Shown here: positions 4,408-47,582 of the stretch, in pieces
Position numbering within the stretch: position 1 is the first letter of the stretch
Layout: the number at the start of each line of letters is the position of its first letter
Assembly (NCBI RefSeq): GCF_965363235.1
Contig: NC_134847.1
Span: 64,044,144-64,108,143, forward strand
Reading direction: 5' to 3'
DNA length: 64,000 nt
Origin: Mytilus galloprovincialis
Lineage: Eukaryota
Program-made: the position numbers and the translations under genes
Notes under the pieces: model-generated
The model's database searches: none
The model's input: only the letters and a program-made list of their open reading frames with translations
What the model was told of the DNA's origin: nothing

Positions 4408-4520
4408 AATTACATACATTAAACTTTACCTTTAACCTATCATTAGTTGATTAACAAAAAGAAGCAGTTTAGCTTCTTTTTGTTAATCAACTAATGATAG
4501 GTTAAAGGTAAGTTTAATTA
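4408..4520. repeat. Long near-perfect hairpin (arms ~46 bp, 5-bp loop) in CDC5L intron 2
   Basis: ctttacctttaacctatcattagttgattaacaaaaagaagc agttt agcttctttttgttaatcaactaatgataggttaaaggtaag. The arms are perfect over 38 bp and extend to about 46 bp with one indel. Confidence 0.8.
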
Positions 4521-4890: not shown

Positions 4891-5292
4891 TTATACAATT
4901 GCAGGGATCTCCATGACCTGTTTTACGATGGCGCCCCGCCATCGTTCCGTTACCTTGCGCCATCGTCAAATTGTCTCCTCCATGGTTAAATTTGTCTGCG
5001 CCATCGTTAAAATTATTGTCAATATTTATTTTTGTATCGTAGTCGTCGCCATTTTTGTTTGTCAAAATGCAAGCTTAATCATCTCCGATACTGGAGAGTA
5101 ATTTTACAGGTAAATATACAGTACGGTATAGACAAAAACCCTACGGCTGTACATAAATTTTACCAATCAAGTTAATAAAATTAGAAGGTATTATATATGT
5201 TTGAAGGTGAAATCGAATTTTATAGGTTTTGAAAAGTGTTCACAACGTAAATAAAATTGAAAATAATAAAAAGTGTTTTTATTCCGATAAAA

Positions 5293-6460
5293 ATGTCGAA
5301 ACGAGTACGTCATGCTTCTGAACCGTCTAGTGTTCAGTCAACTCTTGGAGCTTTTTTTGAATCTGGGGAAAATAGTAAAAAACGTAAAAGAAATGATGAC
5401 AGTGATCATGAGAGTGTTAAATCTGCTAGCCCAGTGAAATCTAAAAAGCATAGATCAACGTTTTACAAAGCTTGGGAATCAAAGTATCAGTGGTTAACTT
5501 ACGAAGAAGAAGAAGGTACTTTTATTTTTAATTAAAATTTCGTAGAATTATTAACCAAAAGTAAAAATCATTTGATTTTATTTCAATTGTAATTATTAAA
5601 AGTTAATTTTAAATAACTTTTCCGATGTTAATAACTTATTTAATTATTTTTTAACTTTGGACAAAAATTCCCGGTAAATAGCGCTAACACCTGACTAATG
5701 TTCGTTTTTAATTTAATTTGCACATTAAAACTTTGGGAATAAATCATTTTTACAGGAATGTTTTGTACATTGTGTATAAAATTCAAACAGCAAGCTAAAA
5801 ATACTGAAGTCTGGACAAAAGTGGGTTGTAAATCTTACAGAGAAGATGTGATTAGAAATCATGAACGTACAAGCTATCATCAAGTTTCTGTCAATATGGA
5901 AAGAGACTCCTTAATAAGTAAAACAACTGGAGGTATTGGTCAAGCATTAGACACTGTTGTAACCCTAGAAAGACGTGCGTTTATAGCTGCTCTTAGATGT
6001 ATGTACTTCTTGTTGAAAAAAGAAATACCACACACTTCGAATTTTGGAGACCTGCTGGACTTGGTCAAAGAAAATGGTTGCTCTTATTTGGATACACTTA
6101 ATGTGGAAGGAAGGGTGAAGTACCAGTCTCAACGAGCAATACAGGAGATGGTGTGGTGTTTAGGTAAATATTTCTTTATTTATTCTTTCTATAATAATTT
6201 ATACGCTTTATATTTTAAGAACGCATGAATCAGAAAATGATTTGTTTTACCTTTGTTTTATAGGTGAAACTATACGTGAAGATGTTGTTGCAAAAGTTGG
6301 ACAGTCAAGTTTTTATAGCATTCTGATTGACGAGACTACAGACATCAGCGTATTGAAACAACTAATAATTTATGTTAAATTTATGGTTGGAGAAGAGTGC
6401 CAAATCAAGTTTCAGCTTCTACAGCAGACAAGTGTCTTCTTTTCATCTTCAGTGGCATAA
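5293..6460 (+). pseudogene. hAT transposase remnant, N-terminal part (TTF-type zinc finger + start of DUF4371; ZMYM1/ZNF862/KIAA1586-like), 3 exons 5293-5515, 5756-6163, 6264-6460
   Basis: The peptide contains ...FYKAWESKYQWLTYEEEEG|MFCTLCIKF...NHERTSYHQVS...LIDETTDISVLKQLIIYVKF, typical of the zf-TTF/DUF4371 N-terminus of domesticated and active hAT transposases. Splice junctions are in phase (ggtact donor / acag acceptor; taggtaaat donor / ttttatag acceptor). Translation then terminates prematurely and the central roughly 500 aa of the transposase are missing. Confidence 0.6.
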
Positions 6461-6552
6461 ATATAGTTTAATAGCAATGCATCTAACTTTTTAAATCATA
6501 AACCTTTCTGTTAAACATGTCAGATACTTACCATTTTATCTCATTACTTTTC

Positions 6553-6757
6553 AGATTGTGAAAGAGGATTCAGTGTCCTCAACAGGGTGAAGACTAGGGC
6601 CAGAAACAGACTTTCACAGAAAGTCCTGAATAACCTTATGATGGTGTCCACTCAGGGTCCAGAGGGAAAGGACTTTAATTTCAACAGGGCTGCAGAGTTG
6701 TGGGCATCTTTGTCTCAAAGAAAACTTGACATTGGGATTATAAATGATGATGTTTGA
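6553..6757 (+). pseudogene. hAT transposase remnant, C-terminal dimerisation domain (DCERGFSVLNRVKTRARNRLSQKVLNNLMMV...)
   Basis: The CERGFSVLNRVKTRARNRL motif is the hallmark of the hAT family C-terminal dimerisation region. It is preceded by acceptor ttacttttcag and ends at stop TGA 6755-6757, about 110 bp inside the 3' TIR. Confidence 0.6.
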
Positions 6758-7129
6758 TTGATGTATAATAAAATGTGTATAATTGCTCAAATCACTCTTT
6801 CTTAACTTCTTTGATCGCAATCATGATTTTTTTTTCAAGTTGAGCTTTCCTCCATGGTTCAATTTTCATCCATGGAGATCCCTGCAATTGCATACTTTAT
6901 ATCATTGGTTTAACATAAGTTTTTCCCATTAAACTGACCTACTTTTAAGTACTAAAAGGCGTTTTATTAACTGAATTTTACTGTTGGTATTGCTGTGTGT
7001 TTCTTCACTTTTGCTTCCGTCCCAAGTCAGGAACCTCTGGCCTTTAATTTGGTTGTCTTGTATGTTTTTTATTTTTTGTTCATTTATATGTTTTGAAATT
7101 TTCACTGAACCAGAACACATTTTTATTTA

Positions 7130-8400: not shown

Positions 8401-10304
8401 AGTCCAGAGAGAATCGAACGACATTTCCCCGCCTTTTCGAAAATAGCTGGATAAGCAGCTGGACTGTTTACAAATCGTTTCCCAATCCTTTCTCAGATAC
8501 AAATACAGTATAATAGAACACATTTTTTACAGGAAAAAACGTAGGTCAGGATGGTCACTTCATCTTCCTGTTAGAATCATTGCAGATGTGGTGGCCACAA
8601 TCATTTTGGACAGTTGAATGCATAGCAAATAAATTATTCTGAGCTCAAGGCACCATGTGAGCCATTACCATCACTGTGCCCCCTTTGATTACTTTGCATT
8701 TTCTTAATCAAAACATTTGAAAAATACCTGCATGATCATCATATGTGAATAAAACATCTTAATAATAGTCCATTTGCCGACTATCTATTTGATTCTGTTA
8801 TACAGAAATTACTTCTCTTTTTCAAATATCGACTGGTTCTATATCGTACAAATTTGGGTTCTGTCCTCAAAAGGCAAAATAAGTTGAATATGAAATATCA
8901 GCATTTGAATAATTCTGAAAGAAAAAAATGAAAAGTTGCCCGAGTTCCAACAGTTTACAGCTTATGTAAAGCAAAATTATATCCAGGTGAAATTTGATCC
9001 GGAGGAAAAAATGTCACAGTAGTTGTTGTTATTTTTTTATCCGGAGGAATATATTTCCCTGGGATATTTTTTCCTTTGCCGTGAAATTCTATCTGTGTAG
9101 TTTACTTATTGAATAGTTATTATAAAAACTTATCCTATAAAAATACTATGAAATAATAATAGTGTATTTGAAATAAAGCGAAATTGTTAAAAAAAAATGT
9201 ATTATAATGGGAAATAATTTCACAAATTATCCTTGAAAAAAATTCCTGAAGTATTCAAAGCAATATCATCCTTTTAAAAAGAAAATTATCATGAAACATA
9301 GAGAAGAAAACCAGAAGTAATTTCAAAGATCGTAATTGTGAAAATAATATCATGATTAAACAAGGTTAGTGAAATACATGTAAAAGTGAGTTGTTTTCAG
9401 ATCTCAGTACAAATATAAATTTAAAAGTAAGGTAGAAATATAGTTGCATAACTACTGTTAACAGTAATAGAAGAATTTGATTATGATGATATTTTTAACT
9501 ATATAAATAGTTTTGTCTGGGGACAGAGATGTAGTTGTTGATTATATGGAAATCAGATAAATCATATCATAACAATATATTGGAACAAAAGCATGTTTAA
9601 CAGCTGGATATTTTTTACCTGTGAAATGTTATCTGTCTTATTAAATCAAGTTGTAAGTCATCTTTTTATATAAATGAATATATAAAAAATAAGATTCAAG
9701 GAAAAATTTCACTCTAAAATAGATTCAGAAATATATTATATTAATACATTTGTATCTTTAAAATATAAATTGCTCATAATTACCTCCCTTTGATAAATTA
9801 TGCAAATTTGGTCTACCTTTGTGAAACTTTTTATAACTATAATCAGGTATATATTGATTGTGAGTAACTTACAAAGTAGTTAATGGGACTCTATTTCACA
9901 CGGTTCTGGGAAATATAGTACGGCAAATATATACCGGTACATACTATCCGCATAACACAGATAGATTTTCACTCCTCTGGAAAAAATCAACCTGAGAAAA
10001 ACCATGCCTGGAAAAAAATTACCGGGACAAATTATCCTCAGGATAAAATATCACAGAGGAAGAAATAAACCGTTACACTTACAGTAACAAAAAAATAAAT
10101 GTAATTAAAAGATTTAAGAAACTTAAAGCTTACACACATTTAATACTCACAGATAAGTTTGCTGTTTTTCTTAGCTCTTCATTGCCAATGAAAAATTTAT
10201 GACCCTTCAAAGTTAGACAACTAAAAAATGGATCTCTTAATGCAGGGTCAACTCAATTAAGGAAATTGGCAAATAGTGTGTATAGTTTATAAATTGATGT
10301 TTTG

Positions 10305-10775: not shown

Positions 10776-11539
10776 GTAAGAGGTCTATCTCTTTTGTTGC
10801 TATGTTGTATTGTTTCACTGCATGTGGATGCTAGACCAGAAGAAAAAAAAATGTTTTCTCAACAATTTTTTTTTATCATTACATAATGCATCCCTTATGA
10901 TCAATTAAAAATCTTTTCTCCGACTAGCTTCCAATTTTGTTTTTTCAAAAGGATTAATCAACCAGTTGCACCTTCAACATTGCATCTAAGGGAAGTAACT
11001 TGCACTTACTATTGAAATACAATTATCTAAGATTTTAATCAATAACAAACAAAACAACTGTTTCTCAAAACAGAATTATGGGTTGTAATTTAAAAACTAA
11101 AGCAATAAGAGCGAAAATATCGGTCAAAATTATAACAAATTTTCCTGGTTAATTTTAAGCAGATATTGCTGCTGAAATTGTAGCAAATTAGAATAATACA
11201 TTTTTGTAATACAATGATAAAATAAAATTGTTGCTTATACGACAGTAGCAAATATTACATACTAATCATAATTTTATGAGTTATTGCCCATAAGGATAAT
11301 ATTTAAAAAAAATATTATCATGTTTTTGTGTACTAGCTTCCCCTATCCTGATAAAAAAAAAGTTATATGATGCAGCAAATAAACAAGATAACACTGTCCA
11401 TCTTTATTTTAAATGTACATTACACATGTCATATCTAATTAACCTCATATTTTATCTTTCATATTATATCTACAAGTGTTAATAATTTGATTAAAAGTTT
11501 TGATATATATATATGGTTTTTTAACTTCAGACATCAAAA

Positions 11540-13291
11540 ATGGCTTCTTCTAAGTCTTTACAAAGAGGACAAATTCCAGTAGGTTGTGAACTTTGTGATG
11601 GTGGGAATAAAATCAAATTTAAATGTTTGGACTGTCAACTTTTAATGTGCAGCCGATGCAAGGATAAAGTCCATGCTAGATTTAAAAATGCAACTGAACA
11701 TAGGATTAGAGACATTAAAGAGCTGGATCTGGAAGAAGAAGTGGATACATTTAACTTTAGAGATGTTAAATGTCTAGAACATCCAGACCAGGCTTGCTGT
11801 GTATACTGTCAAACTTGTAAGAAAGTCATCTGTTTAAAATGTGTAACCAAAGTCCACAATGGACACACCTTTATTGATGAAGAAGAGCTTAATGATAAAA
11901 AGACGATAACTAAAAGTGGACAGAAGAAAACTGATGAAAGTATACATAATTTGACCAGTACATTACACAAAGTTCAGGACATAAAAGATCAGGAAGATGC
12001 TAAATTTAGAAAAATCAAGCAAGATATCTTTAGTCACAGGGATGCTTTTAAGTGTGAAGTTGATAAGCATGCTGATAATCTTGTAAAAGATCTGGAGCAG
12101 ACATGGGAATTAAATAGCCAGGAAATCGGGGCAAAGCATAGCAAGATTAAGAAAACCTTAGAAAACTTACAGAGGAAGAGTAACACTGTAAAAAGTATTA
12201 CAACTTCAAAAGATTTTGTCAAATTCTTTGATGATTTTGATAAATTTGCTGTTTCTTTGTGTGGAGCTACACCACAAGAAAACCTTGAGTTTTCATTATT
12301 GAGGAGATTCTTGCCAGACAAAATTACAATGGTAAATTTTGGATCAAAGGAAAATAGAGGAAACTTGGAAATTCAACATCCTAAAATTGAGTTTAAAATT
12401 GCTAAACAATTCACCACACAATTAAGAAATGTTCATAATATTTGCAGATGTTCTGATGGTACTCTGTGGATTTATGATGGTATTCTTGAAAAGTTGCAAC
12501 ATATAAAATTTGATAATCAAAATATTACGATTATGTCAGAGTCAAACTGTTTTTCTATTTGTGACATGGCAGCAATGAATGCATGCACAAACCTGGTTGA
12601 AGCAGCCTTAGGTGAAACAAAACTGTTTATTATCATTGAAACAAAACTGTTTATTATCAATAGTAGCACTGTATGGCTCAAACATGATGAATCCAATTAT
12701 GATGTGAGACCATATACAAATTGTACATCACAAAGTCAACCAGTATGTGTCCATATAACCAAAGATAACAGAGTTATAGTAGGTGTAGGACGAAGAGGAA
12801 CGAAGGCTGCTGTGGTAGTGATGGGCCAGGATGGTGGATGCTTGGAAAAATATGAAGAAGACAGCAACAAAGAACCATTATTTACACAGCCTAGATTAAT
12901 TACAAGCACCAACAATGGCAATATCTGTGTTGTGGATGGGATAGATTCTGATTGTAGAGTCTTGGTATTAGGAAAAGTAGGAGATATCAAACAGGTGTAC
13001 ATTGGTCAACCAAAAATCAACACTGAAGAAAAAACATTTACGCCCTCTGACCTGCTTACAACTCCTGCAGATAATATTGTAGTTACAGATATATTCATTT
13101 CTACACTACACATATTGAACTCTGAGGGGAAATTTATTGGTCATTACAATCTGCATGACATTGGAATTATATATCCATGTAGACTCACTTTGTCTACAGA
13201 AGGACATATTTATGTAGGATGCTCAAATACAAGGGACAGCCCAGAAACTTTAAAAGCCAAAATTTATGAGTTGGAATATTCTGGATTCTAG
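11540..13291 (+). CDS. RING-less TRIM-like protein: B-box1, B-box2, coiled coil, C-terminal NHL-type beta-propeller (583 aa, single exon)
   Basis: An uninterrupted 1752-nt ORF. Two B-box zinc-finger spacings are present (CELCDGGNKIKFKCLDCQLLMCSRCKDKVHARFKNATEH and CLEHPDQACCVYCQTCKKVICLKCVTKVHNGH). A K/E/Q-rich heptad region follows (residues ~120-230). The C-terminal half carries NHL-like blades (NGNICVVDGIDSDCRVLVL, ADNIVVTDIF, EGHIYVGC). The ATG context is acatcaaaaATGG and AATAAA lies 35 bp after the stop. The architecture resembles the TRIM2/3/71-like family. Confidence 0.75.
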   Translation: MASSKSLQRGQIPVGCELCDGGNKIKFKCLDCQLLMCSRCKDKVHARFKNATEHRIRDIKELDLEEEVDTFNFRDVKCLEHPDQACCVYCQTCKKVICLKCVTKVHNGHTFIDEEELNDKKTITKSGQKKTDESIHNLTSTLHKVQDIKDQEDAKFRKIKQDIFSHRDAFKCEVDKHADNLVKDLEQTWELNSQEIGAKHSKIKKTLENLQRKSNTVKSITTSKDFVKFFDDFDKFAVSLCGATPQENLEFSLLRRFLPDKITMVNFGSKENRGNLEIQHPKIEFKIAKQFTTQLRNVHNICRCSDGTLWIYDGILEKLQHIKFDNQNITIMSESNCFSICDMAAMNACTNLVEAALGETKLFIIIETKLFIINSSTVWLKHDESNYDVRPYTNCTSQSQPVCVHITKDNRVIVGVGRRGTKAAVVVMGQDGGCLEKYEEDSNKEPLFTQPRLITSTNNGNICVVDGIDSDCRVLVLGKVGDIKQVYIGQPKINTEEKTFTPSDLLTTPADNIVVTDIFISTLHILNSEGKFIGHYNLHDIGIIYPCRLTLSTEGHIYVGCSNTRDSPETLKAKIYELEYSGF

Positions 13292-13714: not shown

Positions 13715-14180
13715 CGAGACCACAATTGTCGTCCCTTGATTTTCGTTGTTCACGAATATAGTCCCTATAGTGTTGACAGTGGGTTACTTGCCAATATTTT
13801 TATACCCCTTCCAAATTTATTTCTCCATGTTTTATGCCTCAAATTGGAAGTAGGGGGGGGGGGGGGGTGAAATTACACTGTAAAAAAATTTGGGTCCAGA
13901 ATTTTAAAGGAAAGTATAGTGATTTGGTCCAGCTGAAAAAGGTTAAAAATTAGTATTTTGGGAGCTTTCAAAAGATTTCAAGGTGCCCTAAACATAAAAT
14001 TGTCCATATTTTGAGTTAGAGCTGATGAAGTTTTCTATAATTTTGATATAATTTGTCCCAAAAGTAGTACAACACACTGTAAAAATTTCATTGAGAAAGC
14101 GCAGGTGGGATTTTTTTAATTTTCATTTATGTTCTAAAAGAAATGCACTACAAATTAATTGTGGTCTCAGACCTAAGAGG
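13715..14180. mobile_element. MITE with TIR GGTCYGAGACCACAATTG (~470 bp)
   Basis: ggtccgagaccacaattg at 13715 and caattgtggtctcagacc at 14163. The interior contains a G16 run. A third partial end (ggtctgagaccacaactg) is at 20444. Confidence 0.6.
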
Positions 14181-14554
14181 TGAAATCTGTAAATATAGAA
14201 TCTGTACCTTAGCAACTTCCCTAAATTATTTGATGGTGATAATTTGTCAAATAGCATGAAACTAAAGGAGTTCTATTACTTATTTATGAACTCTGAATCT
14301 ACAGAAAAGAAGGTTATCTCAGACAATATGTGCAAAATGTGTTGTATAAATGACCCTTGTCTAACGCCTGTTTGGAAGAAGTCAAAAGTGGAGAGCTTGG
14401 TACTTAAAAGTTGAAGTCCATCAAATAAACCTCACTTAATTTGTATAAAAAGCACTTTACAATGTCTATTGTACCTGTTTCATTTCACATAATATCTTTA
14501 TTTTCTTCTGTAGAATAGTAAGTGGTTCAAATATAAGCCTGTTGAGACTAAAAT

Positions 14555-14622
14555 CATGGTGGGTATGGTTGTCCTGCGAGAGAACGTTCTGTGCTGGTGA
14601 TTCGGTCCTGACTGGTGCTGGT
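14555..14622 (+). repeat. Left TIR of the Transib-like element
   Basis: See the element entry. The three mismatches against the right TIR are all consistent with CpG deamination (CG to TG or the equivalent). Confidence 0.8.
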
Positions 14623-15469
14623 GGGTCCTGATTCTGTGCTGGTGGGTTTATTTACATTGTATCAGAACGACAATAAAACAACTGTTTTGTTGCTTAATTT
14701 TTCTCTGATACGTCATAAGTACCATGCAAAGTATATTACAACAATATTTTATTGCAAAAGTCGTGCAAGTTCGTTAAATGAAATTGTCCTGACGCTGTGC
14801 TGGTGATAAGAAAAACGGTCCTGGTTCTGTGCTCCTATGTCCTGGTTCTGTGCCTTTATATTTTAGTCAAAAGTGGCAATTATTCAAGATCGTTGTTGCT
14901 TAGCTGTAATTGACTAATTAGTTGTTATCTGTGTTCTTAAAATTGACATTATTGTGAATCTGTTTACTGCAATTATGAAAAAAGAACCCATAATTTTTGA
15001 ATTGACTGTTTTCTGTTTTTCTTATTTAAAATGATTTAAACAGATGTTATCGGTTATCAACATTTTAATGTAATGAAATTATAAACAAAACAGACATACA
15101 AGACTTACAAATCCAAGAGTCGCCTGACTTGGACCGGGCGCTAAAATTCTTGGGGATTTAACATGTTTTGTACGAATCAAAAATAAACAAAGTTGAGCAA
15201 TGCAAACAATCAGACTCAGGTGAGCCTGAACACTTCTTAGATGAGTTTGGATAATGAATTCAGTGTAATTTAAACATCCTGAATATTGTTTCTCTGACAA
15301 ATTTGTATGATACTGTAGATACTTTTCTTTTTATTCAACCAAATGAAACTCAGCCTTGTTTCTGTACGTTAGAATCGTGTGTCTTCAGCAGCTACAATCA
15401 GATTTCTTTGTAAACAAGTTAGTGCTGACTAAAGGATGACTAGTCTATTATAGTTTTTTTTTAATGTTT

Positions 15470-16000
15470 TTTAATGTTTTTTTTGGGGGGGGGGAGTAAG
15501 AGGGACGTCTGAATTTGTCAGAGAATGAAGACGATATAACCTAGATAACACTAACAGAAATAAGATTTTTTAAGTTTTGCATTTTATAATCCCAAAAGAA
15601 AGTCTGTTGTCAAAGATTTTTTATAATTTTAATTAAAATTGAGTGAAAAACGAGTGAACGGAAAAAAATACCAGTCTAGAAATAAATATTGGTAATATCG
15701 CGAGGCTTTTAAGTTTTGTGTTCCAAACACACCTTCTCTGTAGTAATGACTCGTTACTGAGGTATTTCACTTCACGCATTTGTTTCATTTTTTGATACAG
15801 TGAATTCTTAGTATTATAACATTAACATGTAACCTTTGTATATATTTTTTATAAATCGAAACTAAAGCCAGATATATTAAACATTTTTTATTTATGTGTT
15901 TTCAGGACAAAACAATCAGTTCAAACACGCCTTGGAAGTAGAATGCGATAAAATGATTGCCCATTTTTACTCCCCCCCCCCCCCCCCAAAAAAAAAAAAG
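15470..16000. repeat. Inverted pair of (T)n(G)n AGTAAG / CTTACT (C)n(A)n homopolymer junction motifs ~480 bp apart, inside the Transib-like element
   Basis: 15478-15505 ttttttttgggggggggggagtaagaggg is the reverse complement of 15955-15999 ttttactcccccccccccccccccaaaaaaaaaaaa. Similar C(n)A(n) junctions occur at 30826-30855, and a G16 run at 13851-13870. Confidence 0.5.
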
Positions 16001-18472
16001 AGCTTTTGCTGGATGGGGAAGAAGGATCAGATATGCAAATCAAAATCAATATTTCATCTTTTCGTGTAAGTTTTTTTTTCTCAGTTGAATTTATACTTGT
16101 TTGCACCTACAGAAATCGGTTTTGTTAAATGTGCTTTTAATTTCAAAAACACAGTGTGTTATAGTAGTCTCAGTGTTATAGTTGTCTGAGTTATAAGGTA
16201 GTGATATATGTCGTATGCTACGGTTTAATACGAAACTAGGTTAAAATAACGTAGCTAACTATAAGGAGACTCACATTATCCGATGAATTGATATCCGATA
16301 CTGTGTTATAGTAGTCTCAGTTTATATATGTATATGAATATAATTATGAAAGATAGCATGGTCACCAGTATGTGAAGTCCCTAGCTGTCATCTGAAGTTA
16401 ATACTAAGCATAGCTCTAGAAATCGACAGATAGTCATGACATTTAAAAAAAAATCTCTCTTGTTTTCGAAGTTTTTGTAGTTTTGTTTTACCTAAACAAA
16501 TTGACACACACATAAGTATAGTATTGTTTATTTTTTTAACTTAATATATACATGGGTAACACCGGTTACTGGGATAAAAAATCCTGTCACGTGGAAATAT
16601 TTATCAGAAAAAAGGATGGAAATATGAAAATTTACGTGCGATGGGTGCAACAGCATACCGACAATTAACATGGCTCACCAGGGTTGAATCTTAAAAGTAA
16701 ATCAAACTCCATAAACATTTTATTTACAGCCTAAAATACTATTCTTTTGAATAAAGATTTTTTGAAACCAAAAAAGATTATCTCCCCTTCCTACAAACAT
16801 ATTGCAATTTCACAAATATTTTACTGAATATGAAATGTTTTTATTCACATAATGTGTGATTCTTATGAATATAGAATACTTTTCGAAAGAAAAACTATAT
16901 AAAAGCTTAGTTTGGACATTTTTATAGCAATTAAAAATAAAACAGTTCACCTTTAGTATGGTAATGGCTATAATATAACTATACAGATTGATAGACTGAT
17001 TTAGTAATACCATCAATAAAGTGGAGTTAAAGTCTTATAGGATTGTAAGTATATTTTATTTTATCACCTTGCACTTTCACATTTTGACTGAACAATTTGT
17101 TCAATATTCTGACCAGTTGAACAATTTGATTTTATAAAACAAATTGCAATTTGGTCAAAATTTTGAATGAGTTGCAATTGGTGGATAGCAACACTAACAG
17201 TCAAGTCACTGTAAATATAAAAAAAAAGATGTGCTTACGATTGCCAATGAGATAACTGTCCGCCAAGTCTTTCGCCAGAACATACTATATTTTTTTTCTT
17301 ATCCTAGTTTAACTTCCATGCAATCTCTACCCCTTCATGATCATTAACTGTGAAATACTTCTCGGTATCTTCTCAATTAAGATGTCTGATTTATACATAG
17401 TTATGAAATAACTGTTGTGAGCACAAGATTCACTGCACACTTTCAAAGTTCTGCTTTATCAAACATTAAAACATGAACTTTTTGATCGGTACGAGTGAGA
17501 TTTTTATCTAAGATAACTTGGTTTATCTACCGGTGTTAGTTGAAAATGCGGCTTTGAAATAGCTTTGAAATTCACAGTAGCTGCGAGTATGCGTTGTTCA
17601 ATAATTTGTCCCTTAATGTTATTGTTTTATGTGATAAATTTTTGTGTTGTTACACCACTGAACCAATGAATGAGGAAAGGAGGAGGGGTTGGTTTGATGG
17701 AGTTGCATGAGGTGTGTGGAACGCATATTTAACTGAATAAACCAGTCAAACCTTAATGTCAATATAAGACCCCCTCTTATAAATGTCGCTTTACTTTAAG
17801 CACCTTTTAAAACCGTTTAAGTTAACATATTATGTAAAGAATCATCAATTGAAGGGCATTTAATATCTTGAATAAAACTATTCTAATTAGATATATTTTC
17901 ATCTGATATTGGACGGAAGATGTTGCTCATTTATGTAATATGAGTTACTATTATTTGAAAACGCTTATAAAACAGCCAAATGGATGCACTAAAGTGAAAA
18001 AAGGAGTCACAGATCCGATTGAATACAATTATCAGCCAAATTTTATTGATTTTGTAACATTTGTTTCAAATATGACAAACCTTTTACCCAAAATCACCAG
18101 CACCGTATCAGGACCCACCAGCACAATGACAGGACCCACCAGCACAGTATCAGGACATAAATAAACTGAGAAAGTGCAAAATTTTCTTAAATTGCACGGG
18201 TTTTTCACAAAATAATTTTGTCTTTTGGATTTGAGTATACAAAGCAGATTTCATGAGCATTTTTGTTTTATTTTTCCAGTTCTAGATTTTCTGAAAATGT
18301 GCCCTTTTGTGCTACGCTTACTGAAACAGTTTAGAGGGTTAATTTTTTAATGGTTTGCTTATAAACCCATAAAAAACAAAATTGAAAAATCTCAACTGTT
18401 TCCTTCCATTTTTTATGAGAGAAAACGTCAAAAATCATCATTTTCGTCTTTGTTTACATTTTTTCAATGATC

Positions 18473-18540
18473 ACCAGCACCCGTCAGGACCGAATCACCA
18501 GCACAGAACATTCTCTCGCAGGACAACCATACCCACCGTG
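18473..18540 (-). repeat. Right TIR of the Transib-like element
   Basis: Reverse complement of 14555-14622. Confidence 0.8.
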
Positions 18541-21479
18541 AAAATTGCATACAAGTTTTCACTAAAAAGGCAAAAAACTTTGTATCAGACCATACTGTCT
18601 GCAAGAAAAGTTAAATGCAAGAGTCTTTTTGTGCTCAGATTTGTTGTATCATGTCACATGAGTATAGAAATGATAAAAAAGACACAATTTTTTATTTCTT
18701 GCCCATACAGAAATTGCTAACAAAAGCACATAAGTTTCACATGTGAAGCACATGAGATGCAAGTAAGAATTGTATGCAAATCAGGTTGCTCATATGTGAA
18801 GTTTGGTAGTTCATATGTGCCCACAAAAATCTAACATAATGCTCACATGTGCAATTCAAACCTCAGGTGAGCTTTTATCATCCATGTTAGTTTTATGTTA
18901 GTTTTGTACTTTGAAAAGTTTTTCCATTCTTCTAACCATTCAAAACTAACCTACATCATTGCTCATATGAGCTTTTTCAAAATGACATGCCCAGTCATGT
19001 ACTTCCTGTAAATTCAAATTCATGAAAAGCATGCAATAAATGGAGGTAGATGGATATGGAAAATGTTAAGTCCTATATTGTGCTATTTGAAGAAAGGCAT
19101 TGTTGAAATCTGATAAAACCAGTGTGGCTGTGGTTAATTATTTGTAAGTTATCATTTCTATTTCATTATTTTCATTTTTTGTGTCAGATTTTGAAATATA
19201 TTACAATTTTAAGTCCTTTATTGGAATATATATATACAGGTTGGCTTCAAAATAAGTACTACATGTATAAAGATTTTTTCCTTTTAAACTTTTTGAAATA
19301 CAGTACTTATTAATCAAAGACATTCATTGTGTACTAAACTTGCAAGTCCCTCTTTTAGTTTTATAATGTAATGTTATGTTTTTATTCATGATCATGATTA
19401 TTGTTTAAATAAAAAAAATTAAAAAAAATGATATGAAAATCATAATTAACTGACAATAATTAAAGAATAACTCTTTTAACATGATGTATCAGTTATTTTA
19501 TTTTCAACTGAATTATTTAAGATTTTCAATTAAATTAGAAAAATATTCCTTTTTTAAAGCAGCCATTTTGTTTTGGTCAACTATAATATTCACGTGTGCA
19601 ACATGTTAGCAACTGCTCATATGAGCAATCTAATAAAATGCACATGTGAAACAAAAGCTCATATGAGCAGTTGCACATGAGGTTTTTAACATGCAAATTA
19701 GGTTAGTTTCATATGTGCAATTTTTTTGCTCACAAAATGCTCACCTAATTTGCATGTTAAAAAACTCGTGTGCAATCATGTTAGTTTCTAACGTGAGCAT
19801 CTTATGTGCAACTTATGTGCAACATGTAAGAACTTTTTGGTAAGGGTATAGCCTCAATATGCATTTTTTAATGTCAATATGTGGCACGGCCTAAATTGAC
19901 CCTAAATTATTTGTAGTCTTACTTGGCCTAAGACCATTTATACTAATATGATATGTTATTTGTAACTTTTCTTTCCATTTAAAGTACATTCAATACATAT
20001 GTAAGGATTATTTATAACCAAAAAGCTTCACAAATTTTAAATTGCTGGAAAATATTACATCTTCATGTAATGCCCCCCTTCATTAAAAAACCTCAATTTT
20101 TAGGCGCAGGCTCATATAAATTTGACTTTTGAATAATTATGCTAAGTCTGACAAATCAAATGAGTACTCTATTGCATTTAGTACATGATAATTGATATAT
20201 TTAAGCACTTAAAAAGTATATTTTTGCAATATTTTAATTTTTAATGCCCCAAGTGTTGATAGTTGAAATTTTTCAATTTTAACGTCAAAATTTAACACGC
20301 AAAGTTGAGTATAGAATTTAACATACTGTCTATAATATATCTCCTATTGTTATGATACATTGTAAGCAGTGTTATAATTTATAAAGCTTTAGTCATACCA
20401 AGTTTTATTAAGATTGGTCAACTTTTTCTATCCTATTAGGTCTGAGACCACAACTGGTCATGTCTCAAGATTTAAAGGAGTGAAAAAAACCTTAAAATTA
20501 TCAAATTTTTGAATTATGAATTAATTGCAAGAAAAAAGTGTCAATACTGCAGAATATAAGGGGAAATTTTGATATTGATATATTGATATTGCAATGAATA
20601 AATATAGCATATTTTATGTTTTAAGACATATACAAATAAGTCAGATGACCAAAACTGTTTATTGATTTCTTATAGGAGTTATATTGTTCATGAAACACAT
20701 TTTTAATTAATTTAAATTTTCAAAGTTTTTTGCAAAGAGTATGATAGAGAAAAACTTATAGTGGCACTACTATTCAACAAAGTAAAAGCTGAAAAATGGG
20801 CTATCATGACCAATCGTCAACTGATCCTTTATGAGCGTTATTGCCCTTGAACCAAAAATGTTAGATTTTGCAGAACTTATGTTAGGTACTCATAAATGTC
20901 AAATATGTAAACCAAAGTAACTAGACCTACAAATAAGTTAACATGACTGAAATTGACAATTTTTTGTAAGCTCTTATATGAGTTATTGCCCTTGAAAGAC
21001 AATTTTTGCCAATATTTTTTTTAATTTTTTGCAGAAAATATGATAAATGCCCTCAGAGAGAAACATTAACATGATTAAATGGCAAAAAGTTTATCAAATT
21101 GATATCTACAAATAAGTTGATATTAAATGACAAAAACAATGTTTTTGACTTATTAATGTCACTTAGTGTATTGGTCTATTTTACATACACGATCTACATT
21201 AATGGAAGTAAATAAGGTCTATAACAGATAAGAGTACAAGCAAACCAAATATCCAAATACTAGAATCATATTTTTACCAGTTGAGTAATACCAGATCATA
21301 GGATCCTCTAAATGTTTATTTTGAAATAACTGCTTGAAAAAAATACAGTTTTTTTGTAATGTGAATTTCTCATTTATGATTGATTAATAATATTGTTATT
21401 GTTTTAATGCCACTTTTAAGCCCCACATTAAGGATATTTCGTGATGGCCAGTTTGTATTGGTTGAGGAAGGTGGATCTC

Positions 21480-23390
21480 ACTTATAAGTAATATGATAAC
21501 TATATTTGGTATATGGATTCCTTGCAACATCTTCATGTCGATCTGTCAGGGTTAAGCTGACCTTGCCCTCATATTCATGGTTCATTGGTCAATGTAAAGT
21601 TATTTTGTTTTGGTTTGTTTTTTATGCCCCACCTACGATAGTAGAGGGGCATTATGTTTTCTGGTCTTCGCCTCCGTTCGTTCATCCGTCCGTCCTTGCG
21701 TTCCTCCGTTCGCCCCACTTCATGTTATTGTCGAGCCTGCAACTTTTGTTGCAGAAAGCTCGACATAGGGATAGTGATCCGGCAGCGGCGGCGTTAGCTA
21801 ACTTCTTAAAAGCTTTATATTTTAGAAGGTGGAAGACCTGGATGCTTCATACTTTGTATATAGATGCCTTATGTTACGAAGTTTCTGTCAGTCACATGTC
21901 CAATGTCCTTGACCTCATTTTCATGGTTCAGTATCCACTTGAAAAAAAAGTTCAGATTTTTTGTAATGTTGAATTCTCTCTTATTATAAGTAATAGGATA
22001 ACTATATTGGATAAGTGCGTACCTTGCAAGGTCCTCATGTCTGTCAGACAGTTTTCACTTGACCTCAACCTAATTTCATGGATCAGTGAACAAGGTTAAG
22101 TTTTAGTGGTCAAGTCCATATTTTAGATACTATAAGCAATAGGGCTAGTATATTCGGTGTATGGAAGGACTGTAAGGTGTACAAGTCCAACTGGCAGGTG
22201 TCATCTGACCTTGACCTCATTTTCATGGTTCAGTGGTTATAGTTAAATTTTTGTGTTTTGGTCTGTTTTTCTCATACAATGTGCAATAGGTCTACTATAT
22301 TTGTTGTATGGAATGATTGTAAGGTGTACATGTCTAGCGGGCAGATGTCATGTGACCTTGACCTCATTTTCATGGTTCAGTGGTCAAAGTTAAGTTTTTG
22401 AGTTTTGGTCCTTTTATCTAATTCTATATGCCATAGGTCAACTATATTTGGTGTATGGAAATAATTTATGATCTTTATGTCAGTCGTGCAGGTTTTTTTT
22501 TACCATGACCTCATTTTCACGGTTCATTGCACAGTGTTAAGTTTTTGTGTTTTGGTCTATTTTTCTTAAACTATAAGTAAAAGGTCAACTATATATGTTG
22601 TATAGAAGCATTGTTAGCTGTACATGTCTGCCTGGCATGGTTCATCTGACCTTGACCTCATTTTCAAGGTTCATTGGTCTTTGTTTAGTTATCTTGGTTA
22701 ATGTTCTGTTTATGTGATAGTTGTAATAAATTTTAGCTTTATACTTAGGACTATCAACATAATATCAATGATTAGTATAGAAGGCGAGACATTTCAGCAT
22801 GCCCACTCTTGTGTTAAAGTTTTTGGTCAAGGTAGTCTTTGATGAAGTTGAAATCCAATCAACTTGAAACTTAGTACAAATGTTCCCTATATGGTATAAT
22901 CTTTCTAATTTTAAGGCCAAATTATATTTTTTACCAAATTTCACAGTCCATTGAACATGAAAAATGATAGTGCGAGTGGGGCATCCATGTACTTAGGACG
23001 CATTCTTGTTTAAGTACTTTATTCAATAGGTCAACTATATGTTATGTTTTGAATGATAGCAAGAGGAACGTGTCTCTCTGCCAGATATCACATGACCTTT
23101 TCCTCATTTATTTGGCTCAATGGTCCAATATTAATAGCAATAGATCAGCTATGTTTGGTTTATGGTATACTTATGAGGCGTACATGTCTGTCTGGCAGGT
23201 ATCATGTGAACTTTAGCTCATTTTCAATTTTTTGTGTTTTAGTCTGCTCTTCAATTACTATAAGCATTATAATAGTTTAGTTATATTTGGTATATGAAAT
23301 AATTGTAAGGTATTCATGTCACATCTTCCTGTATCTGTTTGACAGAATTTATATGACCTTGACCTAATGGTCATGGATCTTTAAAAACAC
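21480..23390. repeat. Satellite-like tandem array, ~150-bp units with core gaccttgacctcattttcatggttcagtgg, ~12 units
   Basis: Units recur at roughly 21530, 21890, 22040, 22190, 22340, 22500, 22650, 23080, 23210 and 23340. The array is interrupted by the two halves of a MITE (5' half 21640-21790, 3' half 22780-23000). The 197-aa ORF at 21506-22099 is a translation artefact of the repeats. Confidence 0.75.
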
Positions 23391-23549
23391 CAGTGATATT
23401 TCAGCATTTACACTCTTGCTATTAGTAGAGAAAGCCTAAGTGTTGGAAGTAAGCTGCAAACCTTCAGCTAGGAAATGGGAATGGTAAATATATAGATATT
23501 TTAAGATGAGTCTTATGTTGTCAATTTAGATCCCTAATAATATATGTTT

Positions 23550-23705
23550 CAGTGGCGGATCCAGCCATTTTGAAAAGGGGGGGTTCCCAACCCAGGACAA
23601 AGGGGGGGGGGGGGTTCCAACTATATGTCCCCATTCAAATGCATTGATCGGCCAAAAAAAAGGGGAGGTTCCAACCCCTGGAACCCCCCCCTGGATCCGC
23701 CACTG
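23550..23705. mobile_element. 156-bp MITE with TIR CAGTGGCGGATCCAG and 5-bp TSD TGTTT (Transib-like MITE family, copy 1)
   Basis: 5' end cagtggcggatccagcc, 3' end ggctggatccgccactg. The perfect direct repeat tgttt lies at 23545-23549 and 23706-23710. The interior is G/C homopolymer-rich. Confidence 0.7.
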
Positions 23706-24432
23706 TGTTTAGGTATTTTTTGTTAGTTTGATAACTTATTCCTCCTGATGAGATATTGAATTTTATACATTGTATTGACATATGCATGACAGCTTTAGGA
23801 TAATTGATTGATATCCTGCCAATAGATACATTTATTTATTGAAGTAAAGTTGCAAACAACATACTTGGAAAATGACAACCCTCTTAGTTGGTACTTTTGG
23901 GATTACAAGGTCAAAATAGTTGCATTTTACAATTTCTCTTTGTATAGCCACCACCCTTTTATGATGCTGCATATATAGTAAATTCACATACTTTTCAGAC
24001 GACCAAATCCCAAAATTTTAGTGCTAGTTGGTACACCCCTTTTTTCAAAATCCTGAATCTGCTCCATGACTACAATAAGAGACTGCGTGTATTAGACTTT
24101 TAGTAAAGTTAAGTGCTCTTCATTTCACTTGCTATTGCTCCTTAATGCCATTGCTAAGCTAATTACCTGAAGGAATTACCAAATATAAAACCAAATACCT
24201 TAAAGTGGTATTTGCTGCTTCTATATATAAACTAAATATACAGTATAAGAGCAAAGACTGGTTGGATCAGAGTCAGAATAATATGTCTGCATAAGGTGAT
24301 AAGTCTACCTGCTGACTGTTATCTTGTAAACAAGCACTTTAAGATCTGCCTCAGCAGGTTGGTCTAGAACAGTGCAGGAAATCAAGTCACATTGTATAAA
24401 TGTGTCCTCGTCCTGTATAATATGCCTTTAAC

Positions 24433-24830
24433 TTGCTGCTGGACATTAAAACCATTACATTGTCTTCATGCCATCATATCCATATTGGAATTAAAGCTGA
24501 AGACAGAAAGTGTAAGCTATGTAAGAACGCAGTTGAAGACGAACTACATTTTCTTTTAAAATGTCCTGTTCTAAAAGATACTAGATCTCAACATCTATCT
24601 AATTTAAATTCAAAATTCAAAAATTTTTCAAGATTATCTGATGAAATGAAATTTGTTTGGATTCTTTCATCTGAAGATTTGTTTGTTACTTCAAACTTAT
24701 CTAATTTATTGCACTCCCTTTTTGAAGAACGAAAGAAAATTATAGAAAATATTGTTGTTTGAAAAAGAAAAAAAAAATAGAAGAAAAAATATTTATAGAT
24801 ATATATATATATATATATAGGAAATAAAAT
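24433..24830 (+). mobile_element. 5'-truncated non-LTR retrotransposon (LINE) 3' end: ORF2 C-terminal CCHC-like motif plus A-rich/(TA)n tail
   Basis: The ORF contains CKLCKNAVEDELHFLLKCPVLKDTR, the CxxC...HhhxxCP motif found at the C-terminus of LINE ORF2 proteins. It terminates at 24762 and is followed by aaaaagaaaaaaaaaatagaagaaaaaa and (TA)10 at 24800-24820. No RT domain is present upstream. Confidence 0.5.
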
Positions 24831-25701
24831 TGATCAGGAGTTGTCTCCCATAGACCTAGAACTATAAAGATTTATGTAATTTCTCCAGGTCACAGTGGCA
24901 CCCATAACTATGTTTGTCAATAACTTGATTTATATCAGGTTAATTAGTGTAAATGTGTATTCATGTGTTTTTTTTGTTTAAATGTACTTTAATCATTCTA
25001 ATCATTTTCTGTGCTTTATTTTGTAATTCATTTGATTGTATAGCTCAAATTTTGGGCACCATGATTGGTTAATAAAATTATCTTATCTTATCTTATCCTG
25101 GCCATTTTACCAATGTTCAAACCTAATAAATTAGTTAAAAGCAATTCTATTCACTATTTCAATCTTTCTTAACATATACATTTTAAATTTTTTTGCAATC
25201 CCTGTTTGTTTTTTTGTGTGTTTCATGTTGCTCTAGTTTGAATGTACCACAGTAGTGTTTTGTGGACTTGTTTGTCTTTTTCTATTTTTTTGTCATGTCA
25301 GTTTCTCTTCAGCATATTGAATTTTGTTGTGGTATCTTCTGTCGCTTTTTTTGTTTTTATTCTTTTCTTTAATAAGATTGATCAATGTGGGATTATGATT
25401 ATAGTAAAAGTTTTATACCCAAACAAACAGATCATAGACAAGATTTTGGTGGCACCATAAATGATATCTACCTCTTCTCTCGGTTGAGTTTTTGAAACCT
25501 TCCAATTTTTACAGTGTTTTCTTTCTGGTTAATTGACTTTTACCAATTATCTTGTGGCATTGTATATATGTTGATAACATGCTACTGATTTCTATTGATG
25601 TAATATTTGCAGAGTTCAAATGATGTGGATATGGCTGAGTACAAGTTTCCTGTCATCAACTAATTAAGAAATAATTCATGGAAGCCATAGATTTGTTGGA
25701 A

Positions 25702-39500: not shown

Positions 39501-39659
39501 GGTTTATTTTTAAGGAGGAGGTATAGGAGTGGGATCAAATTTTCAGAAGATACAACTTAATCATAATTCTTAAATTTTGGTAAATTGCTGTCCTCAATAA
39601 GTCAATTAATGGACATGGGGCCAAGTCTGTAAAATTCTAATTAAACCCTACTTGATTCA

Positions 39660-39821
39660 CAGTGGCGGATCCAGAACTTTTCCTAAGGGGGGGGGGCCCG
39701 CTGACTGACCTAAGGGGGGCCCGCTCCAGTCATGCTTCAATGATTCCCTATATAATCAACCAAATTTTTCCCACGAATGGGGGGGGCCCAGGCCCCCCTG
39801 CCCCCCCTGGTTCCGCCTATG
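39660..39821. mobile_element. 162-bp MITE, same family (CAGTGGCGGATCCAG...), with 5-bp TSD ATTCA (copy 2)
   Basis: 5' end cagtggcggatccagaac. The 3' end ctggttccgcctatg is degenerate. The perfect direct repeat attca lies at 39655-39659 and 39822-39826. The 75-aa ORF at 39662-39889 is spurious. Confidence 0.65.
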
Positions 39822-40867
39822 ATTCAGTGATGACTTGGCAACATAACTCAAGTATAACTTCTAAGATCTTTCAGAATGACTTGTATTGAAAAAAAATTAT
39901 GTCCATCAATGTGCAGTGAAATTTGTAAAGATTATTTGATGCATCTTGATGTTTTATTTATGTTACTTAGAATGAATTAGATTATATAACATTGTGCACA
40001 CCACTAGCAGTGCACCAAGGATTATTTGTGAATTAAGTAGACATTCATTGAATTTCCTTAATCCTCAATACACTCTTTACTTTAGTAGTGGTAAAGTTTT
40101 CTGTTTTCTATAAGATTTGTTCTAGATGCCTGTGAAATTTAATCTCAACGGAAAAATTGTGCAATGTAGCACATTTAACCATTAAGAAACTTATATAACA
40201 GAGATTTGTGAAACTTGATTTGTTTTATAAGAGCCATTAAAGATGTATTTGTTGACATGAAGGTTTTAGGTTCCATAATTTAATTTGTAGGTCAAAAGTT
40301 GTCAATGGAAAATAGAACAGAAGATTAAAAGCCAAGTGCTTTCAATTACCATAGGATAAATATGGTTCAGAATAGTACATGTATATTCAAACTTTGAAGT
40401 ATATCCAAGCAATAATCATAATGGTTTTGATACAGAAGTACATGTATTATTATGTATAAGGTTGAATAATAATTAAGACTGTGTTTGCATTCTGATCTTC
40501 TGAGTATTTTGTAAAAGATATATTGGTTTGCTGCTTACTTCCGTTTTCATTGGTTCATGGAACACAAGTAAGATTATTGCATGCATGGTTCTTGTATTCA
40601 TAATTTCATTACAATTTGGAAAAACTTAAGTACATCATTTGGGTTCCTTCATTTTTTTCCCCCAACCTTCAACCTTTCATGTAAGTAGGTGTTGTAGTAA
40701 AAAACAACATAACATGTTATTTAAGGGAGTAAAAGATAAGAATCGGTCAAACAATTCAAAAGTTGTAATCAATAGCACTTTAATCTAAAGTTGACATCAC
40801 TTCTGCAGATGGTACATGTCTTAAAATATCTATGTACAAATACCAAAATAAAGTATACAAAGTTTCT

Positions 40868-46062: not shown

Positions 46063-47582
46063 AAGTCTGCTGTCTGCAGATCCGGGGAGGTTTTGGGGCT
46101 GGAACAGCACCCAACCCCCTTCCCCCTTCTTTTTGACTTATTTTATATATGTGAACGCTTTAACTCCTTTTCCAATGTGACTGGATCAGCCACTGACATA
46201 AAATATTTTTACATCCTTGTATCTAATTTTTGTTTGGTTAATAATGTTATTGCACTTCTTCAATCAAATGTATATAGGTATGCAGGTTATTCATTTGTAA
46301 GCAGCTGAATAAGCCTTTTGATGTGATACATGCCACGATTTGTTTGTTTTTTTCAGATTTGTTTGTTTTTTTCGTATACTGGAATGGATTAGGTTTAAAA
46401 ATTTTAAATGTTATAGCGATGAAAATTTAACCCAATCAAATGTACTTTATTATAGTATTTGACTTAATTTTCATTCTTTTGTTAAAAACCATGTGAAATC
46501 TGTAAGTTTACGACAAAATTGATTTGATTTATATGACCTCATTACACATCTTTATGTTTTGTTGACATTTTATTTTGAAATTTTATGGATTTATTATTTC
46601 GAAATTTCCAGTCGAAAAAGCAGACTTTAATTTGAAAATAATTTTAATTTTATTTGTATTTTTTTAAGCTATATTAGTTAGATTGACTATTTAATTGAGT
46701 GATTCTCAAAATGTAAAAAAATAACAGTGGGACTTGAGAATATAAACTAAAGTGGATAGAAAATATTAAAGAATTACTCTAGGACCCTTCTTACATAGAA
46801 TTTGAAACTTTGAGAAAATACAGCCATAGGAAATGAGTTATAAAAGAAATTGCTTTCTTTTTTGTCCTTGTGTTGGCTATATTAGTCTTAATTTGTTGTG
46901 TCCAAATACTTTTGTGGAACCTTATACAAATTTACAAAGAAAAACGTATTGAGACCTTTTCTATTTGCTACAAATTTGTCTTCATTGTGTTTTTTTGGCA
47001 TGTTTGTTTTGGACATTTTTTCAGAAATCATACAGTTAATAATTGAATTTGTCTCCATTTACTCTTGGGAGCATGTAAAGATTTGTCAACAGAACCCAAT
47101 TAGCCTCTCTTTGAACTCTTAATATTGATTCTTCTGGTATTAAAGATAACATCCGTAAAAGGTTTTATTTAAACGATCAGTCTTTTTATAATTCCTTTAG
47201 AATAATTAACAACAATCTTTTAATTTTGCATCAGATTATGCTTAAGTTGGAATTTACATTGTGTTTTCAATTTTGTTGTCTGTTTTAGTGTTGTTTCATG
47301 GAAACTGTTACAGTTGCTCTGGGAAATGTACAAAACTAAAAAATAGCATTGTAAATATTAATGGTGATGAAATTGTCAGAATAGTTTTTAAGTCCACAGG
47401 AACACATTGAAATATTTTGTTGCCAGAGATAGCACAAAACACATAAACCAGAGCATAAATATTCATGCACAAAAATATTCATTTTCTATAGAAGATAGTT
47501 TATTCCCTTCACATAGTTTATTCCCTTCACATGTCTGTTTGTCACGATAATTTATGAACATAAGGTCTCTATATCCTACTTT

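Follow-up and report, generated by a model that had tools for sequence, protein, structure and literature searches.

Target-site duplications of 8 bp are the hallmark of the hAT superfamily, in which the hAT5 transposase clade lies near the Blackjack-type animal hATs. hAT5 itself is an established hAT group with 5-bp duplications, found in invertebrates and fish, according to the passages of PMC12730594 and PMC9004415 that cite Kapitonov & Jurka 2007 in Repbase Reports; because these passages give a 5-bp definition, we rejected the reading of "hAT5" as the mere name of a type element. The third nucleotide of hAT ends is critical and always G (PMC1131882), and YARNG is the terminal motif typical of the superfamily (PMC3014272). 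A 5-bp duplication is also the hallmark of Transib. Transib ends span 38 bp, in which a spacer of 12 or 23 bp separates a heptamer from an A-rich nonamer; every Transib family has a perfectly conserved CAC at positions 1-3, and GC-rich target sites are preferred even in AT-rich genomes (Kapitonov & Jurka 2005, PMC1131882). Since hAT5 is an established 5-bp hAT group, a 5-bp duplication is not diagnostic of Transib. A third point of comparison is provided by the silkworm elements BmMITE-13, -14, and -16, described as "Pegasus-like" (hAT) MITEs, which have the termini CAAGGGCGGATCCAG and CAGTGGCGGATT(A/T) and 8-bp duplications (PMC2997013).

We analyzed a 64,000-nucleotide stretch of the Mytilus galloprovincialis genome (contig NC_134847.1), referred to below as the window, together with ∼108 kb of other Mytilus loci, so that Mytilus DNA amounts to ∼170 kb in all. 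The MITEs found there combine hAT-type termini with 5-bp duplications, as does hAT5; that group is defined on autonomous elements and their transposase clade, whereas the Mytilus family is known here from non-autonomous copies alone. The likeness to the Pegasus-like MITEs lies in the termini, which match CA(A/G)(G/T)GGCGGAT... and agree with CAAGGGCGGATCCAG at 13 of 15 positions and with CAGTGGCGGATT(A/T), which stands for two of the silkworm elements, over the first 11 bases, and in the fact that both sets are small, AT-rich, and non-coding. The silkworm elements differ in being larger (263-431 bp), in coming from a different phylum, and in their duplications, which are 8 bp rather than 5 bp. 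With Transib, the Mytilus MITEs have the 5-bp duplication in common, but the CAC start, the heptamer-spacer-nonamer arrangement, and the GC-rich targets are missing here.

MITE copies in Mytilus

The copies identified in the window and on a second M. galloprovincialis contig (L175), which carries two paralogues of copy 1, are collected in Table 1.

Table 1. Coordinates of the MITEs and their flanking duplications (window positions unless a locus is named)
Feature	Position	Strand	Remarks
Left target-site duplication of copy 1	23545-23549		TGTTT; same letters as 23706-23710
MITE copy 1, subfamily A	23550-23705	+	156 bp, non-coding
Right target-site duplication of copy 1	23706-23710		TGTTT
Left target-site duplication of copy 2	39655-39659		ATTCA
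MITE copy 2, subfamily B	39660-39821	+	162 bp; left terminus perfect
Right target-site duplication of copy 2	39822-39826		ATTCA
Degenerate third relative	46070-46195	-	∼126 bp; good terminus CAGTGGCTGATCCAG at 46195-46181 (minus), 1 mismatch
Subfamily A paralogue	L175 2447-2604		82% to copy 1; flanks GGTAT/GGTCT (4/5)
Subfamily A paralogue	L175 15667-15830		77% to copy 1; flanks GTGTT/GTGTT (exact)

The termini of copy 1, CAGTGGCGGATCCAG (23550-23564) and CTGGATCCGCCACTG (23691-23705), form a perfect inverted repeat (15/15); the 'ATTTTGAAAAG' arm is the left one and the poly-G arm (C8 on the plus strand) the right one. The identity of the flanks stops at TGTTT, so that neither a 6-bp nor an 8-bp repeat can be read. 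The predicted fold of this copy as single-stranded DNA is a long hairpin of -40.4 kcal/mol (z = -4.0), as is typical of MITEs. A second, independent assembly of M. galloprovincialis (GCA_900618805.1) contains the corresponding allele at L001 20248-20407, which is 94% identical, retains the TGTTT flanks, and differs mostly in the length of its G-runs; the site is thus filled in this second assembly. M. edulis and M. trossulus lack any counterpart of the segment around copy 1 (window ∼23060-23970), so that neither species offers a readable empty site.

Copy 2 has the layout ATTCA, CAGTGGCGGATCCAG ... CTGGTTCCGCCTATG, ATTCA, with a degenerate right terminus that reads CATAGGCGGAACCAG on the minus strand and carries 3 mismatches. 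Because only ∼34 terminal bases of copies 1 and 2 can be aligned (82%), the two represent different subfamilies rather than close copies. Their common architecture runs from the terminus through ∼12 nt ending in TTTT(G/C)nnAAG to a G-run, a variable core, a C-run, and the opposite terminus. The other end of the third relative has decayed to CTGTCTGCAGATCCGG, from 46070, a boundary that was read from the sequence by eye; inspection of its flanks revealed no recognizable duplication, and it may adjoin another repeat. With up to 3 mismatches allowed, the 15-mer terminus has 5 matches in the window against 0.24 expected, a count reached in none of 100 shuffles; the fifth of these is the good end of the third relative.

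The initial annotation had described exact 5-bp flanks of different sequence around the two window copies and had taken them as evidence of genuine transposition with a 5-bp staggered cut. Direct reading confirms the flanks (TGTTT and ATTCA), and the two L175 paralogues likewise have 5-bp duplications, one exact and the other with a match at four of five positions. At all four independent Mytilus insertions the repeat directly adjoins both termini and is exactly 5 bp long, and 8-bp windows mismatch. An exact 5-bp flank match is expected by chance at ∼0.002 per element, as calculated from the ∼31% GC of the window; against this expectation, three exact duplications (TGTTT, ATTCA, GTGTT) and one of 4/5 establish that the elements transposed with a 5-bp stagger. 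They measure 156-164 bp, have 15-bp termini and no coding capacity, and are represented by four Mytilus insertions, one allele, and one degenerate relative; they are genuine MITEs of the Mytilus genome. The family is old rather than young, because its copies diverge by ∼20% and fall into several diverged subfamilies. A precise empty site was not recovered for any family member in the comparison with M. galloprovincialis L001, M. edulis, and M. trossulus.

The same annotation had drawn attention to poly-G/poly-C tracts of G8-G14 and to their potential to form G-quadruplexes or i-motifs. The tracts are real, although some are slightly shorter than this range: we count G7, G13, and C8 in copy 1 and G10, G6, G8, C6, and C7 in copy 2. 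Because the terminus is directly followed by the G-run in every relative seen, and because G-run and C-run are paired in the predicted hairpin, the runs would more simply be part of an extended inverted repeat, which makes a quadruplex role unnecessary.

Termini and their relatives in other animals

The family termini have the form CAG[G/T]GGCGGATCCAG. Their first five bases are CAGTG or CAGGG, in agreement with YARNG and its third-position G, and the termini extend into a poly-G run on one arm and into nnATTTTGAAAAG on the other. Among the twelve elements with 5-bp duplications from Mytilus and other hosts, all arms start with CAG except the right arm of copy 2, where a mutated CAT is found. 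The twelve duplications have an overall GC content of 37%, with TGTTT, ATTCA, GTGTT, and GGTAT as the Mytilus set. An A-rich block is absent from the poly-G arm, and the other arm offers no more than TTTGAAAAG (positions 20-28).

The 20-mer terminus CAGTGGCGGATCCAGGGGGG matches at least 120 metagenome contigs, and those that we sampled are animal DNA, as seen from LDL-receptor class A (LDLa) repeats and a rhodopsin-type GPCR. Among the matches listed, paired elements have 8-bp duplications in 12 cases (11 exact and one 7/8), including two elements of ∼3.2 kb (L102 and L119), and 5-bp duplications in 8 cases (six exact and two 4/5). When the elements are clustered, families are uniform in duplication length with one exception (L131/L139); four families are 8-bp only, and a ∼410-bp family from sample Ga0126335 has 5-bp duplications in five of its six members. 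The poly-G arm is common to both classes. The second arm has the consensus CAGGGGCGGATCCAGnAATTTTGnAAAG in the 5-bp families of other hosts (Ga0126335, L060, and L170), and the Mytilus second arms, CCATTTTGAAAAG, AACTTTTCCTAAG, CCATTTTAAAAGA, and TTATTTAAAAAAG, match it. The Mytilus MITEs are thus part of a multi-host 5-bp lineage that is nested among 8-bp elements with homologous ends, the arrangement that a hAT5-like branch within hAT would be expected to show. We note that one arm begins with CAC in some of the 8-bp-duplicating relatives, so the rule that the third base is G is not absolute in this lineage.

The exceptional family consists of 265-bp MITEs with ∼85% identity from a single sample, in which the member at L131 7569-7833 has a 5-bp duplication (ATTTA) and the member at L139 2523-2786 has an 8-bp one (CCATGAAG). 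Either one junction has lost 3 bp by deletion, or the same ends have been integrated with staggers of two lengths. More broadly, one lineage of ends, conserved over ∼28 nt on both arms in distant hosts, may hold 8-bp and 5-bp sister families, with at least the L131/L139 family inserted both ways through cross-mobilization of the same ends by two transposases of different stagger or a recent switch from 8 to 5 bp within one transposase lineage. We regard this idea as unlikely; if it were true, it would offer a natural system for studying the determinants of hAT duplication length. The conservation of the extended termini across hosts and the 5-bp/8-bp split among homologous ends are of modest interest for transposon specialists, without raising a new biological question.

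Viral contigs contain no match to the 20-mer CAGTGGCGGATCCAGGGGGG, and the 47 viral matches to the 15-mer, all single and on separate contigs, were judged to be chance. Three terminus matches were obtained in a collection of prokaryotic genomes (L170, L171, and L172), of which L172 also looks like chance. L170 (OZ220035.1, "MAG: Stappiaceae bacterium, chromosome 84") contains a 341-bp family MITE with a 5-bp duplication and, by eye, a reverse-transcriptase-like ORF fragment, and L171 (CALNYB010000057.1, "Cyanobacteriota MAG") contains an animal-type LINE ORF with RVT_1 and endonuclease domains (Pfam); both look like mis-binned eukaryotic host DNA. The full 15-mer termini are absent from searchable papers, in which string matches to the terminus were limited to cloning primers and the silkworm MITE table.

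Candidate transposases

We consider it likely that the MITEs depend for mobilization in trans on a 5-bp-cutting, hAT5-like transposase of the hAT superfamily, because the termini fit YARNG, relatives with 8-bp duplications have the same terminus, ORFs with the dimerization domain PF05699 lie beside the terminus at two loci (L117 and L100), the ends resemble those of the Pegasus-like MITEs, and hAT5 offers a precedent. The 8-bp duplication that usually marks the superfamily is not seen in the Mytilus copies, all of which have 5 bp. Such a hAT DDE transposase would bind the extended termini, excise the MITE, and reinsert it where the target is AT-rich, cutting with a 5-bp stagger, and repair of the resulting gaps would yield the target-site duplication. 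From their ends and duplications, we infer that the Mytilus MITEs may belong to hAT5 itself.

The link to hAT coding sequence comes from other hosts. At L117, downstream of a terminus at 9643(+) and on the same strand, lies the frame-shifted C-terminal half of a hAT transposase (11216-12634), the remains of which include an RW.S motif and the dimerization domain PF05699 (30.5 bits, cutoff 21.4). At L100, the terminus has the extended form CAGTGGCGGATCCAGGGGGGGTTCG, which closely resembles the right arm of copy 1, and a 121-aa ORF with PF05699 (25.5 bits) lies ∼100 nt downstream on the same strand; this locus looks like an internally deleted element. Both are decayed copies whose opposite ends are lost, and neither is a clean autonomous copy. 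A set of terminus-bounded elements of ∼2-3.4 kb (L102, L119, L120, L113, L088, L077, L160, and L091) has no transposase ORF, and these elements are therefore non-autonomous. A protein search with the L117 hAT fragment returned eight metagenomic proteins, and the corresponding loci, L176-L180, carry related termini, including CAGTGGCGCAGCCAGG with an exact 8-bp duplication at L176. No clean autonomous element is present at these five loci; the hAT ORF of L176 lies among several related termini and not cleanly inside a pair. An autonomous element bounded by family termini was likewise not found in the ∼170 kb of Mytilus DNA, and the Mytilus DNA other than the 22-kb M. trossulus locus L181 encodes no protein related to the hAT transposase of L117. 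No terminus copy is present in L181.

The failure to find a partner transposase would also be compatible with another or undescribed family of 5-bp-cutting transposases, in which case the hAT likeness of the termini would be convergence. Motifs as short as CAG.G can indeed recur across superfamilies, but what the MITEs have in common with 8-bp-duplicating elements is 15-28 nt on both arms, not merely five bases, and in two cases a hAT dimerization domain adjoins the terminus. We regard this explanation as unlikely.

The initial annotation had suggested instead that the family is possibly mobilized by Transib, whose elements are related to the immune recombinase RAG; on this reading, a RAG1-like Transib transposase would recognize the termini and cut with a 5-bp stagger. 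The duplication length agrees with this proposal, the arms are asymmetric in a way that loosely recalls the 12/23 asymmetry, an A-run lies ∼12 nt past the first seven bases of one arm (TTTGAAAAG), and a probable Transib-like element is present in the window (14554-18541), so such transposases may exist in the genome. Other observations speak against it: positions 1-3 of the MITE are CAG in place of the perfectly conserved CAC, the nonamer-like block is missing from the other arm, the targets are AT-rich and not GC-rich, identical termini are borne by 8-bp-duplicating elements, and the ORFs that adjoin the terminus at L117 and L100 have a hAT domain. Among the ORFs of 220 aa or more at 123 loci, only a few of which were checked against Pfam, none that looks RAG1-like was noticed. 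Comparison of the termini with those of Transib, which the annotation had suggested, leads to the hAT motif YARNG, the motif of another superfamily, and the likeness that it saw to the large element at 14554 (CAYGGTGGGTATGG) amounts to 5 matches in 14 ungapped positions, too few to be meaningful. Mobilization by Transib is thus unsupported, and we find it highly improbable. We give almost no credence to the remaining reading, canonical 8-bp hAT MITEs with misread or eroded duplications, for although most terminus-bearing relatives in other hosts have 8-bp duplications and one family has a member of each kind (L131, 5 bp; L139, 8 bp), termini-abutting 5-bp repeats with mismatching 8-bp windows are found in all four Mytilus copies, and five of six members of the Ga0126335 family are likewise 5 bp.

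The Mytilus MITE is real but ordinary. Its main value is for annotation: because hAT-type MITEs with 5-bp duplications are present in molluscs and are superficially similar, a 5-bp duplication alone should not imply Transib or RAG-like activity in these animals.

Other insertions in the window

The window (∼31% GC) is crowded with transposable-element insertions, many of which are polymorphic between assemblies. Its only long ORF encodes a B-box/NHL TRIM-like protein (11540-13291), with identities of 98% in M. galloprovincialis, 90% in M. edulis, 81% in M. trossulus, and 66% in M. californianus, which marks the sequence as nuclear DNA of a mussel. A tandem array of ∼147-bp repeats, recognized from self-matches, occupies 21400-23300, directly upstream of MITE copy 1, and its length varies among the window, L001, M. 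edulis, and M. trossulus.

An internally deleted hAT element of 1982 bp lies at 4903-6884, with the termini CAGGGATCTCCATGG and CCATGGAGATCCCTG and the 6-bp duplication CAATTG. The product of its spliced exons combines a C17orf113-type zinc finger (PF25431) with a C-terminal hAT motif and is annotated as ZNF862-like in Mytilus; a protein search with this hAT fragment returned its own ZNF862-like family only. Exact empty sites exist in GCA_900618805.1 (L001 ∼5765-5785) and in M. trossulus (L181 ∼4426), and the element is therefore a recent, polymorphic, hAT6-like (6-bp) insertion. Because this 6-bp hAT is polymorphic and its empty site has been verified, short-duplication hATs are active in the Mytilus genome, and we counted it in favor of a hAT origin of the MITEs.

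The large element at 14554-18541 comprises 3988 bp of non-coding DNA with 70-nt inverted termini (96%) and a 5-bp duplication, AAAAT. Its ends, CATGGTGGGTATGG and CCATACCCACCGTG, have the terminal form CAYGGTG, of which the CAT version is probably CAC mutated at CpG, and GTCCTGAnnCTGTGCTGGTG repeats are found in subterminal positions. With a CACGGTG end and a 5-bp duplication, the element fits Transib much better than the MITE does and is probably Transib-like, although neither an A-rich nonamer nor a transposase was seen in it. A perfect 18-nt inverted pair, T8G10/C10A8, is located inside this element at 15477-15494 and 15978-15995, 483 nt apart, and may be another insertion with poly-G/poly-C ends. 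The whole element is contained in a block of ∼6.75 kb (∼13723-20474) that is missing from M. edulis (L002) and M. trossulus (L181), with a duplicated TCATG and the similar direct terminal sequences GTCCGAGACCACAATTG and GTCTGAGACCACAACTG at its junctions. These features point to a large insertion, possibly of LTR type or composite, that is peculiar to the M. galloprovincialis lineage. Four segments of the window (16726-17212, 18700-19847, 20379-20673, and 24481-25090) are missing from the L001 assembly and are probably further polymorphic insertions. Finally, TTACCTTTAACCTATCATTAGTTGATTAACAAAAAGAAGC and its complement form a perfect 40-nt palindrome around a 6-nt spacer at 4426-4511.
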